The position numbers and the translations under genes are program-made. Below are positions 16,952 to 22,920 of a stretch of DNA of 64,000 nucleotides, in pieces. Positions within the stretch are counted from its first letter, which is position 1. Each line of letters starts with the position of its first letter. Source of the stretch: Candidatus Hermodarchaeota archaeon (GTDB taxonomy: Archaea; Asgardarchaeota; Hermodarchaeia; Hermodarchaeales; Hermodarchaeaceae). The notes under the pieces are model-generated. The model worked only from the letters and a program-made list of their open reading frames with translations, was not told where the DNA came from and searched no databases. The stretch is from assembly GCA_016839365.1 (NCBI GenBank), contig JAEOUH010000070.1:68166-132165 (forward strand), written 5' to 3'.

Positions 16952-17995
16952 TCAGAAACGGCGTCGTTTTTTCGGATAGACCTGGAAGGGTGTTCGAGGT
17001 TCCAAGCTAAACCAATCTGTTTCCTGGTCTAGACGCGTCAAGGATCGAAGCAGATCAAAGGTGACCCAGCGTGACACTTCTGGGTACCGTCGATATTCCC
17101 AGAGGCCGTAGGGACCTTGTAGCCCCTTGACGAATTTTACGTTTTCATCAACTCGGGGGTCCTCAAGGTTGGCTCCAATCCGCCATGACAAATCCAGCAT
17201 CTGTCCAACATCGTATCGCCGGAAATATGTAAATCCGCCACGAGGTGGCTCAGCTCCCACGATACGTGCCACTTCAAACCCCAGTGTATGGGCTTGGCGC
17301 TGCTCTTGGGCAAGCAACTTATCCAATCCTTTACGAGCAGGCTCACTTTTTCGTCGAGTGGGATGGAGGGCCAGTGCACTCACTGCTGCAGTAGTGTTGG
17401 TTCGACAGCCAAACTTTGAATGTGGGAGTCGACGATAACCTGCAGCAAAAATGAATTTTTCTTTATGGCGCCCTGATGGCCATCCGCCTTCAGGTAGTTC
17501 CTCATTGATTAGCCACTCATAAGCGGCTTCAGCGCGTTTATCCGTTGCATATCCCGCCCAGGCAAGTCCGATTAAAGGCAAAGCCGTCTGGACTGGCATG
17601 GCATGATACTTCACATCCTGCGATTTGCCACCATCCAGCAGAGCTCCCGGCGTAATCAACGGAAAGGCTCCATCCGATTGCTGTTGAGCAAAAAGGAATT
17701 CGGCCCCCTTTCTGATAGCAGAGTTCTTTGGGCCTAACCCGAAATACCCCAGGCCCATGAGGGCTTGGGCCGTCATGCGAATCTGTCCCAAAAAGGCACC
17801 CCCGCCTTCTCCGCTCCGAAAGGCTCCGTCTTGTTCCTGTAAGGCAAGGAACTTCTCAACTATTGGATCAGATTTTTGGAGCTTTTGGAGTTCTTGGATC
17901 TCTGAATCCGATTCAGGTCGGCTCAGAAGGTCGCGCAACACAAGAAGCCGGAGACTTGGCGATGGGTCAGCAAGAAGCAGTGGGGCCCAAGTCAT
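16952..17995 (-). CDS. Alpha/alpha-toroid (prenyltransferase / squalene-cyclase-like repeat) protein, function unknown
   Basis: Four spaced Q..DG.F / EGGW type repeats (QEQDGAF, QQSDGAFP, ELPEGGWPSG, LQGPYGLWEY). Its ATG (17993-17995) overlaps the TGA (17992-17994) of the upstream UvrA-like gene. Confidence 0.5.
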   Translation of the reverse strand: MTWAPLLLADPSPSLRLLVLRDLLSRPESDSEIQELQKLQKSDPIVEKFLALQEQDGAFRSGEGGGAFLGQIRMTAQALMGLGYFGLGPKNSAIRKGAEFLFAQQQSDGAFPLITPGALLDGGKSQDVKYHAMPVQTALPLIGLAWAGYATDKRAEAAYEWLINEELPEGGWPSGRHKEKFIFAAGYRRLPHSKFGCRTNTTAAVSALALHPTRRKSEPARKGLDKLLAQEQRQAHTLGFEVARIVGAEPPRGGFTYFRRYDVGQMLDLSWRIGANLEDPRVDENVKFVKGLQGPYGLWEYRRYPEVSRWVTFDLLRSLTRLDQETDWFSLEPRTPFQVYPKKRRRF

Positions 17996-20900: not shown

Positions 20901-22920
20901 ACTCCAGATACCCCAGCCCCACATCAGTTAGCGCTTTGAGAATGCGTTGAGCGGCTTCGCGTTTCGATTCAGACAAGTGTGGAGATTTTGTCAACATTTC
21001 CTCGGTATCAGCAATCGGAAGGGCATAGAAATCAGCAATGGAGAGTTGTTCCCCATTAAAGTCCACCAGCGCTGACAATACTTCTCGGCTAAAGCGTTGC
21101 CCCTTACATTCCTCACAGGGAAGCCAGATGGATGGGAGATATTGCATTTTCACTTCAGAAGCCCCGATGCCTTTACAAAGGGGGCAAGCACCTTCGGGAC
21201 GATTGAAAGAGAAGTGTGACTTTGATAGCCCTGTAGCCTCGGCAAAGAGATCACGGATAATATCTGCGAGTTTCGTATAGGTTGCTGGATTGGAGCGTGG
21301 GTTACGCCCAATGGGACTTTGGTCCACTAACACAGGCTTAATCGTTGCCCTTTCAATCTCTTCACACCCTATGGGTTTCTTCTGAGCCAAGGAGGGTACA
21401 AGCACATGCTCCACCAGGGTGCTTTTCCCTGAACCCGATACACCAGATATTACGGTCAAGCGACCCAATGGGATTTTCACATCGATATTCTTCAGGTTAT
21501 GTTGGTGCGCCTTCTTGACTGTAATGAAACTTTCTGGTTGCGAACGGGATTCAGGAGTAACAACGCGATTTCGGAGACTGAAATACTGTCCCGTGACGGT
21601 ATCCGCTAGCCACAACTGTTTGGGTGAGCCTTCAAAGATTACTTCTCCACCGTTCTTTCCAGCCCCAGGACCTAAGTCAATTGCATAATCGGCTGATGCA
21701 GCTGCTACTCGTTCATGTTCGACAAAGATCACAGGTCCGGATAATTCACGGAAAGCGGGTAGAAACCGGGCTATATCTGCTGGGTGCTGACCAATGGTTG
21801 GTTCATCTAGTACATGTATAACGTCTTCCAGACGACTGGACAAAGAAATAGCCAGCCTCACCCGCTGCGATTCACCTCGTGATAAGGTTGGAGATGACCG
21901 GTCCAAGGATACATATCCGAGTCCCACTCGCTCCAAGGCATCGAGCCGTCGCTGAATCTCGTAAAGTAATCGATTCGCCGTCGAAGGTAATTTCACACGC
22001 TTGAACAGTTTATGAGCTCCATCAACAGAAAGCGTGAGCAGTTCTGGTATTCGCATACCTTCCCAGCGGACTGTTGCAGCTTGAGGATGCATCCCAGTTC
22101 TATCACAGCGCTCGCAGCCCGTACCTTTGCAATAGGGGCATGGTTGATTGAAATGCGTTGGACGCAGCTCTCGAAAGCCTGTTCCACACACAGTGCAATT
22201 CTGTGTCGTTGTCAGGGTTAGGCTAGATTTCCTAGATGTTGAGCGGATAGCTCCTGCGCCTAACGCAGTTGCCTGTTGTGTAAGTTGTCGAATTTTCTTT
22301 GTTGAGGTTTTAGCATCAATTTCTCCGAGATAGAGGTCGATGGAATGAGGCTCTATTGGAGATAATGCGTTTCCTTGCCATTCTTTTCCATCAACAAATA
22401 ATCGTTCTTTCTCAAATTCGTTGCTCAGAGTCGCAAGCAGGGTCCTATGACTTCCCTGGACGTCCTTTAAGAGCGGTGCGAAGAGTTTGTGGGACTCCTC
22501 CCTAGACAAGGCTGTTAATTGTTCGAACAGTTCATCTTCGGTCAACACTGACAACGGTTCGTTGCATTTCAGACAATGACGAACTCCATAGTTCGCAAAG
22601 AGTAATCGTAAAAACGGGTGCAACCCCGACGCAGTTGCAAGGGTCGATCCCGGGTTTCGATTCAACAGATTTTGACCCACAGCAATTGCAGGTCCCAAAC
22701 CTGTGATTTTCTCAACATTCGCCGGGGCCAATCGTTGACCACCCCGACCATATAAGAAGACATCCAAGAAGCGCCTATTTGCTTCATGGTACAAAGTATC
22801 AAACACCAAGGAGGTCTTGCCTGAACCCGAGACCCCAGTGACCACAGTAAGTCCATCACGGAATCGAACATCAATATTCTTGAGGTTGTGCTCACTGGCA
22901 CCCTTCACATGGATGTCCAT
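17992..22920 (-). CDS. Tandem-fused UvrA-like protein (two UvrA2-type units, four ABC ATPase modules)
   Basis: Four Walker A GVSGSGK[TS] motifs were verified in the DNA at 22813-22836, 21421-21444, 20389-20412 and 18865-18888. There are four signatures ([32 protein letters not shown]), four Walker B motifs (VLDEPT, ILDEPS, LVDEPS, ILDEPT) and Cys4 zinc modules in each half. Residues ~808-860 restart a UvrA N-terminus. Confidence 0.9.
   Translation of the reverse strand: [1642 protein letters not shown]

Follow-up and report, generated by a model that had tools for sequence, protein, structure and literature searches.

We analysed a 64,000-nucleotide stretch of contig JAEOUH010000070.1 (assembly GCA_016839365.1, positions 68,166 to 132,165, forward strand) from a Candidatus Hermodarchaeota archaeon, hereafter the window, in which a fused double-length UvrA gene had been predicted from the sequence alone. 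We found that this gene and the one directly downstream constitute a self-contained two-gene module in which the UvrA halves underwent complementary domain loss. The UvrA gene runs through 17992..22920 on the minus strand as one reading frame of 1642 residues (aa) without an internal stop, as predicted; the second gene (16952..17995), absent from the original prediction, is translationally coupled to the first and encodes an alpha/alpha-toroid protein. Searching 5.8 billion proteins for the fused UvrA yielded more than 119 homologs of full length; the residue counts and the alignment reported here use 119 of them. The features of the locus are as follows (all on the minus strand; NBD, nucleotide-binding domain).

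17992..22920, minus: fused double-length UvrA gene, 1642 aa plus stop; the whole protein scores 1401 bits against TIGR00630
16952..17995, minus: conserved partner gene, 347-aa alpha/alpha-toroid (QW-repeat, terpenoid-cyclase-like), PF13243; its ATG overlaps the UvrA stop (ATGA)
20551..22920, minus: unit 1, aa 1-790; NBD-I with the UvrB-binding domain and without the insertion domain, then NBD-II
22813-22836, minus: Walker A of NBD 1 (GVSGSGK[TS]), aa 29
22186..22575, minus: zinc module 1 of unit 1 (C116, C119, C242, C245) around the UvrB-binding-domain homolog (aa ~120-241); four Cys in 119/119
22105..22140, minus: zinc module 2 stub of unit 1 (C261, C264, C269, C272), the insertion domain being deleted between its halves; four Cys invariant
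21421-21444, 20389-20412 and 18865-18888, minus: Walker A of the remaining three NBDs, aa 493, 837 and 1345
20494..20550, minus: linker between the units, aa 791-809; constant in length and variable in sequence, with P795 conserved
17995..20493, minus: unit 2, aa 810-1642; NBD-I with the insertion domain and without the UvrB-binding domain, then NBD-II
20068..20124, minus: zinc module 1 stub of unit 2 (C933, C936, C948, C951), the UvrB-binding domain being deleted
19603..20007, minus: zinc module 2 of unit 2 (C972, C975, C1103, C1106) around a canonical insertion/DNA-binding domain (PF17755, hhalign)

One chain with two UvrA units and four ATPase modules

The tandem NBD-I/NBD-II of UvrA occurs twice per chain with complete motifs, giving four NBDs. 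The four Walker A motifs lie exactly at the predicted nucleotides, and each is followed by its own LS.GE.QR signature (aa 346, 681, 1184 and 1529) and a D-E-P Walker B. In all four NBDs, the Walker A Lys, LSxGE, the Walker B D-E and the H-loop His are invariant in 119/119 homologs; thus, the ATPase motifs are intact in both halves. The zinc ligands comprise 12 CxxC motifs, i.e., six four-Cys modules (three per unit), and all 24 Cys are invariant in the same 119. The expected head-to-tail fusion of two complete UvrA units was borne out: the region at aa ~808-860 replays the N-terminus, and BLASTP aligns unit 1 with unit 2 over 883 columns (E = 1e-96) at 30% identity, so the two halves have diverged as anticipated.

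Spacing between Walker A and signature I is shortened in both units (317 and 347 aa in units 1 and 2, respectively, compared with 456 aa in E. coli UvrA), which agrees with the original prediction. The ATPase features also differ between the units. In unit 2 NBD-I, the Q-loop region has been remodelled and carries an insertion (window 20170-20260, aa ~888-915; consensus V-A-P/T-H/Q-R/Q-A-H-L-W), a change restricted to this one of the four NBDs, and signature I, LSGGE elsewhere, is an invariant LSRGE in unit 1 and LSAGE in unit 2. Such Q-loop and signature I differences may give the two 'distal' ATP sites different properties. At the family level, the whole chain scores above the NCBIfam cut-offs (729.8 bits for TIGR00630; 1323 versus 1147 bits for NF001503), while the single units fall under them (units 1 and 2, 705.6 and 640.6 bits for TIGR00630; 679 and 651 bits for NF001503).

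Each unit has lost the accessory domain that the other has kept

Alignment to Thermotoga maritima UvrA (3pih) revealed that T. maritima residues 3-283 correspond to unit 1 aa 2-268 and residues 384-914 to aa 269-789; against E. coli UvrA, residues ~285-408 (i.e., the insertion domain) are absent from unit 1. The segment between the halves of zinc module 1 is a homolog of the UvrB-binding domain. A profile of aa 120-241 from the 119 homologs matched canonical UvrB-binding domains by hhalign (99.2%, E = 3.3e-19), while the control comparison with the insertion domain gave 1.1%; Pfam PF17760 also matched, weakly (21 bits). An AlphaFold2 model of aa 101-280 (predicted local distance difference test, pLDDT, 85) found only UvrA structures among its Foldseek matches in the PDB, including 3fpn_A (isolated UvrA-UvrB interaction domains; template-modelling score, TM, 0.82; root-mean-square deviation 2.5 Å), 3uwx_A (UvrA-UvrB complex; TM 0.72) and 4dfc_B (UvrA-Mfd core complex). 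The domain has evolved under purifying selection, with a ratio of non-synonymous to synonymous substitution rates (dN/dS) of 0.12-0.34.

Unit 2 shows the reverse pattern. In unit-2 numbering, aa 9-141 align with T. maritima residues 4-129 and aa 144-826 with residues 249-904, and the insertion domain is kept (PF17755, 32.9 bits; hhalign 98.9%, E = 1.2e-17) under strong constraint (dN/dS 0.04-0.15). A Cys- and aromatic-rich insertion of ~180 aa in unit 2, for which the original prediction had no assignment, is the zinc module 1 stub followed by zinc module 2 and the canonical insertion domain. The same prediction had both units without a UvrB-binding domain. This is correct for unit 2 and incorrect for unit 1, where PF17760, hhalign and the match of the AlphaFold2 model to 3fpn_A all detect the domain and the insertion domain is lost instead. 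Finding such a domain in either half was a result that the original prediction had itself counted as contradicting it. Consequently, the class I accessory features occur once per chain, with the UvrB-binding domain in unit 1 only and the insertion domain in unit 2 only.

The fusion arose once and is old

The full-length homologs are 1617-1689 aa long and 59-100% identical, and they come from NCBI, JGI, ENA and Logan assemblies; carriers of the fused gene include the complete chromosomes CP070764.1 (Chloroflexota) and CP070828.1 (Bathyarchaeota) and the DZ2M MAGs (metagenome-assembled genomes) of Promethearchaeota. At the junction, the homolog alignment shows a linker of ~19 residues that is fixed in length, with practically no gaps. 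Linker dN/dS was 0.39-0.49 in four of the five pairs that yielded an estimate and 0.10 in the remaining pair, and dN/dS is below 1 along the entire fused gene, indicative of purifying selection.

Identity between the two units is 31-34%, and each shares 35-41% with E. coli UvrA. A rough neighbour-joining tree built on the NBD cores places the a-units of the complementary type in one clade and its b-units in another, and these clades are not sisters; identity is 36% between a and b and ~40% between either of them and other UvrAs. Because the a-units and the b-units are each monophyletic, the fusion arose once and is old. A recent tandem duplication was rejected, given the 31-34% identity and the separate clades.

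The fused family occurs in bacteria as well as in archaeal MAGs. Its distribution is patchy across phyla, and the identity of 59-89% between copies from archaea and from bacteria points to horizontal spread.

The fused UvrA is nearer class I than class II and has a double-length architecture of its own

UvrA classifications cover classes I, IIa and IIb (PMC9328131). Unit 1 scored 498-538 bits against class I structures and 418-422 bits against those of class II (Deinococcus radiodurans UvrA2 and Ecm16), and unit 2 scored 485-511 and 375-398 bits, respectively. Both units are thus nearer class I, and the likeness to UvrA2, DrrC and Ecm16 that had been suggested for them is weak.

Like class I UvrAs (E. 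coli, Bacillus stearothermophilus, T. maritima and Mycobacterium tuberculosis; TIGR00630 / NF001503), which are the best PDB sequence matches of both units (485-538 bits), the fused protein has the class I unit fold and domain order, two complete-motif NBDs per unit, zinc modules 1-3, a UvrB-binding domain (unit 1) and an insertion domain (unit 2). Unlike the class I homodimer, it is one chain of two units with each accessory domain present once rather than twice; the UvrB-contact pair R216/E222 appears not to be conserved, most of the DNA-contact arginines R712, R722, R724 and R730 are not conserved, the Q-loop of unit 2 NBD-I is remodelled, and there is an obligatory operon partner. It also departs from the class II and IIa proteins (Deinococcus radiodurans UvrA2, DrrC and Ecm16) because unit 1 has a UvrB-binding domain, because two units are fused in one chain and because similarity to 2vf7 and 7sh1 is below that to class I structures. 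In addition, class IIa proteins are without the zinc module 1 stub, while unit 2 keeps its four-Cys stub.

Double-length UvrAs proved to be abundant rather than rare. An exhaustive search with unit 1 across 1.84 billion cluster representatives yielded 45,400 matches, and the best 150 of these are nearly all double-length UvrAs of ~1550-2340 aa. We sorted architectures by zinc-module spacing, with a Pfam check on one example per class, and found at least four double-length types. Denoting the UvrB-binding domain as U and the insertion domain as D, these include U+D+/U+D+ (two complete class-I-like units), U+D+/U+D- (a complete unit followed by one without the insertion domain) and U-D+/U-D+ (two class-II-like units), in addition to the complementary U+D-/U-D+ of the window protein. 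The only curated long-UvrA model, NF001885 (1809 positions), is narrow: its cut-off of 3054 bits was reached by none of the proteins tested, and the fused protein scored 903 bits. Thus, the window protein shares with other double-length UvrAs (NF001885 / PRK00635 and many uncurated families) a widespread covalent tandem with four NBDs, and it differs from them in its U+D-/U-D+ architecture and in having a-units and b-units in clades of their own. Three representatives (P0254, P0268 and P0353) are UvrA-like proteins of 2166-2343 aa with 6-8 matched stretches, a pattern in the sequence that suggests they may carry more than two units or additional fused domains.

In the searchable literature we found no description of fused UvrAs and, in agreement with the original prediction, no characterisation of the fused protein. 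Goosen and Moolenaar (2008) reportedly mention duplicated UvrAs.

A toroid protein is encoded directly after the fused UvrA in every locus with downstream DNA

The partner matched the profile of squalene-hopene cyclase (3sqc) with E = 2.8e-14, and its AlphaFold2 model found only toroid proteins by Foldseek (squalene-hopene cyclase, drimenyl-diphosphate synthase and MstE; TM ~0.45). It therefore resembles the QW-repeat barrels of class II terpene cyclases and squalene-hopene cyclase in its alpha/alpha-toroid fold and QW-type repeats. Unlike terpene cyclases, it lacks the DxDD catalytic motif, which is absent both from its 347 aa and from the family consensus, it has a conserved basic tail, and it is encoded beside a DNA-repair ATPase. 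The tail is a nearly invariant C-terminal EPRTPFQxYPKKxRRF (window 16952-17050) that AlphaFold2 predicts to be disordered and that may be a docking peptide. Invariant residues H131, H177, H192, C197 and H211 could form a metal site.

By tblastn, the gene that directly follows the fused UvrA is a partner homolog (44-91% identity) in Promethearchaeota, Odinarchaeota, Bathyarchaeota and Desulfobacterales, and the pairing also occurs in the complete Chloroflexota chromosome CP070764.1 and in Acidobacteria. The reverse test, starting from three partner homologs (one from Hodarchaeota), found the fused UvrA immediately upstream in 3/3. Overall, the partner directly follows the fused UvrA in all 17 loci with downstream DNA (17/17; Promethearchaeota, Odinarchaeota, Hodarchaeota, Bathyarchaeota, Desulfobacterales, Chloroflexota and Acidobacteria). 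Start and stop codons overlap by 4 nt in most of these loci, and the other neighbours are unrelated.

A model for the module: a proposed asymmetric single-chain lesion sensor

Cryo-EM of M. tuberculosis UvrA2 on damaged DNA revealed that identical protomers are functionally asymmetric, with one 'recognition-ID' (ID, insertion domain) holding the lesion (PMC11985968). The first UvrB binds the protomer with the released 'support-ID', and this A2B1 intermediate has been visualised (PDB 9ga3); for canonical hand-off, a second UvrB must then bind and the UvrA dimer must come apart (PMC11985968). Whether the sensor acts as A2B2 or A2B1 is under open debate (PMC7835731). In nucleotide excision repair (NER), deletion of the UvrB-binding domain abolishes repair, and deletion of the ID lowers damage specificity (PMC3025350).

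The fused UvrA resembles the M. tuberculosis UvrA2-UvrB1-DNA complex (9ga3), in which the UvrB-engaging protomer has no engaged ID and the lesion-holding protomer has no UvrB. The asymmetry in 9ga3 is transient, arises between identical subunits and gives way to a second UvrB and disassembly, whereas the asymmetry of the fused gene is permanent and covalent. Because the fused protein encodes the same split permanently, the reading that we prefer, albeit tentatively, is a lesion sensor made of one UvrA chain with hard-wired asymmetry, which acts together with the toroid partner and has spread horizontally. The architecture, the conservation, the gene pairing and the patchy archaeal and bacterial distribution are direct observations. 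As to mechanism, the fused chain would fold around DNA like a UvrA2 dimer. The single ID, in unit 2, would act as the lesion-holding 'recognition' ID, and the ID-less unit 1 would present its lone docking domain to one downstream factor. The simplest such factor would be one UvrB, in which case the gene would fix an A2B1-like stoichiometry. We further propose that the toroid protein would be an obligatory accessory or effector subunit, and that the module would be a horizontally transferred accessory sensor of lesions or adducts rather than part of core housekeeping NER.

A more ambitious form of this proposal, possible though less probable, is that the fused UvrA and the toroid form a previously unrecognised two-component DNA-surveillance pathway that works without the canonical UvrA2B2 cycle. 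The asymmetric pseudo-dimer would sense a lesion or DNA-bound ligand and pass it on to the toroid or to one client bound at the UvrB-binding-domain fold that unit 1 retains, and the pathway would be exchanged horizontally between Asgard/Bathyarchaeial archaea and sediment bacteria.

Several observations weigh against the asymmetric-sensor reading. The step with a second UvrB and disassembly is impossible for a covalent chain with one docking domain. The UvrB-binding domain is the least conserved folded part of the protein (46% identity, compared with 67-81% for the NBD cores), and its 21 bits to PF17760 compare with ~60-75 bits per domain in other double-length UvrAs. This fast evolution could reflect adaptation to the UvrB of each new host or, alternatively, repurposing. 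In E. coli UvrA, R216 and E222 are the UvrB-contact pair (PMC3025350). The E222 position is Gln in 70 of the 119 homologs, and R216 has no aligned counterpart, the nearest conserved Arg being 1-2 residues off. The DNA-contact arginines of signature domain II (R712, R722, R724 and R730) have fared similarly, with three of the four lost in unit 1 and all four equivalents lost in unit 2. For the partner, the AlphaFold2 model is moderate (pLDDT 62) and gives the fold class only. Finally, neither uvrB nor uvrC was found in the window or in any ±8-10 kb flank, by tblastn with the E. coli proteins or in Pfam gene lists. Since uvr genes are usually unlinked, however, their local absence is only weak evidence.

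Duplication itself is common among UvrAs; what sets this module apart is a complementary domain loss that mirrors a transient state of canonical UvrA, together with a linked toroid, and the complementary architecture is an old clade of its own. Two points in bacterial NER are still argued: whether the damage sensor is A2B2 or A2B1, and how the two UvrA protomers divide the work. The fused family is a natural construct in which one answer is fixed, with one docking and one lesion-clamping domain per four-ATPase machine. As the protein is a single expressible chain, each ATP site, the ID and the UvrB-binding domain can be mutated separately, something that a homodimer does not allow. Known NER has no counterpart of the strictly linked toroid. 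More broadly, the UvrA superfamily includes a large and almost unstudied set of double-length proteins with diverse architectures, one branch of which is common to Asgard or TACK archaea and bacteria.

Alternative readings of the module

The alternative that survives best, although we consider it unlikely, is a UvrB-independent, class-II-like DNA-clearing ATPase that dislodges an intercalator or another bulky non-covalent ligand, with the toroid capturing or processing the released compound and the UvrB-binding-domain fold repurposed. There is precedent for such activity in class IIa UvrAs such as Ecm16, which act without NER proteins (PMC9328131). The strong divergence of the UvrB-binding domain, including its apparently unconserved UvrB-contact residues, fits this reading, as do the horizontal, accessory-gene distribution, the AlkZ-like glycosylase and aminoglycoside adenylyltransferase near the module in the window and its closest relative, and the extra class-II-like UvrA beside the module in one genome (both described below). 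The tight operon with a terpenoid-cyclase-like toroid fits as well, and this fold typically binds hydrophobic polycyclic molecules. To our knowledge, however, the UvrB-binding domain has been lost from all characterised UvrAs that act without UvrB; here it is kept, is correctly folded in the model and is under purifying selection. In addition, both units are nearer class I than class II, no biosynthetic gene cluster is kept around the module, and the resistance-type neighbours are shared only with the closest relative.

Less probable still is a housekeeping NER UvrA in a fused format that works with the usual UvrB and UvrC, the partner gene being incidental. The whole protein does exceed the NCBIfam UvrA equivalog cut-offs, and the UvrB-binding domain, insertion domain, zinc modules and ATPase sites are each present at least once; moreover, other double-length UvrAs contain complete class I units, and bacterial-type UvrABC is known from some archaea (PMC518961). 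Yet either half alone is below the cut-offs, the DNA-contact residues and apparently also the UvrB-contact residues have diverged, and the family is scattered over phyla, its archaeal and bacterial copies being highly identical. The partner is not incidental, because its linkage is 17/17 with overlapping start and stop codons.

We regard as very improbable an anti-phage or anti-plasmid defence module in which the ABC ATPase senses foreign DNA and the toroid is the effector. Both units match PADLOC mad3 (E = 1e-60 and 1e-67) and mad8, the two-gene cassette is mobile with variable surroundings, and one locus has an MmeI-type restriction-modification gene nearby. MADS, however, is an eight-gene operon that depends on MAD6, MAD7 and MAD8, none of which is present here; this system was rejected because the PADLOC similarity is at the ABC-ATPase level only and no further mad genes are present. 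The partner had no match in the PADLOC search, the module shows neither a nuclease nor any other effector domain that could be recognised, and its neighbours are mostly metabolic genes rather than parts of defence islands.

That the fused reading frame is two neighbouring uvrA genes joined by an assembly or frameshift error is effectively refuted by the more than 119 independently assembled full-length homologs, complete chromosomes included, that share the same ungapped junction with an in-frame linker under dN/dS <1; the sole locus called as two open reading frames (ORFs), L029, has its break elsewhere than at the unit junction. In that locus (a Hodarchaeota MAG, 2899-8004), the ORFs are of 1192 and 475 aa with a 100-nt gap, and the split, which falls inside unit 2, could be a frameshift, a pseudogene or a sequencing error.

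Genomic neighbourhood

The closest relative of the window is a Promethearchaeota MAG (L010) with eight collinear genes at 81-91% amino-acid identity, a synteny that assigns the window to an Asgard archaeon. On the plus strand at 14071-16142, ~2 kb from the UvrA module, the window carries an AlkZ-like DNA glycosylase gene (PF06224, E = 1e-58) followed by a streptomycin/aminoglycoside adenylyltransferase gene (PF04439) that overlaps it by 4 nt. We rejected this pair as members of the system because they are kept with the module only in L010.

Other loci have neighbours of their own. A divergent Promethearchaeota MAG (L013, 9992-12499) encodes an extra single-unit UvrA of 835 aa, 28 nt upstream of a fused gene of 1623 aa, so that three UvrA units follow one another. 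This extra unit is class-II-like (insertion domain present, UvrB-binding domain absent) and shares 39% identity with E. coli UvrA. In one MAG (L031, 5-2908), the fused UvrA is immediately preceded, on its own strand, by a gene for an Lhr-type DNA helicase (DEAD, Helicase_C, WHD_Lhr and DEAD_assoc), and the MmeI-type restriction-modification gene mentioned above lies ~6 kb from the module in L030. No conserved biosynthetic gene cluster was seen around the module in the examined loci, and no tRNA was found in the window.

Farther off in the window, a 2076-aa ORF (79-6309, plus strand) has only a weak match to Invasin_D3 (Ig-like), and a 1145-aa protein (6573-10010, plus strand) consists almost entirely of PAS domains (eight PAS_9 stretches) without a recognisable output domain. 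Two ORFs of 171 and 154 aa (23069-24195, plus strand) are divergent from the UvrA gene and have no Pfam or NCBIfam match; both are kept upstream of the module in L010 and in an Odinarchaeota locus (L003).

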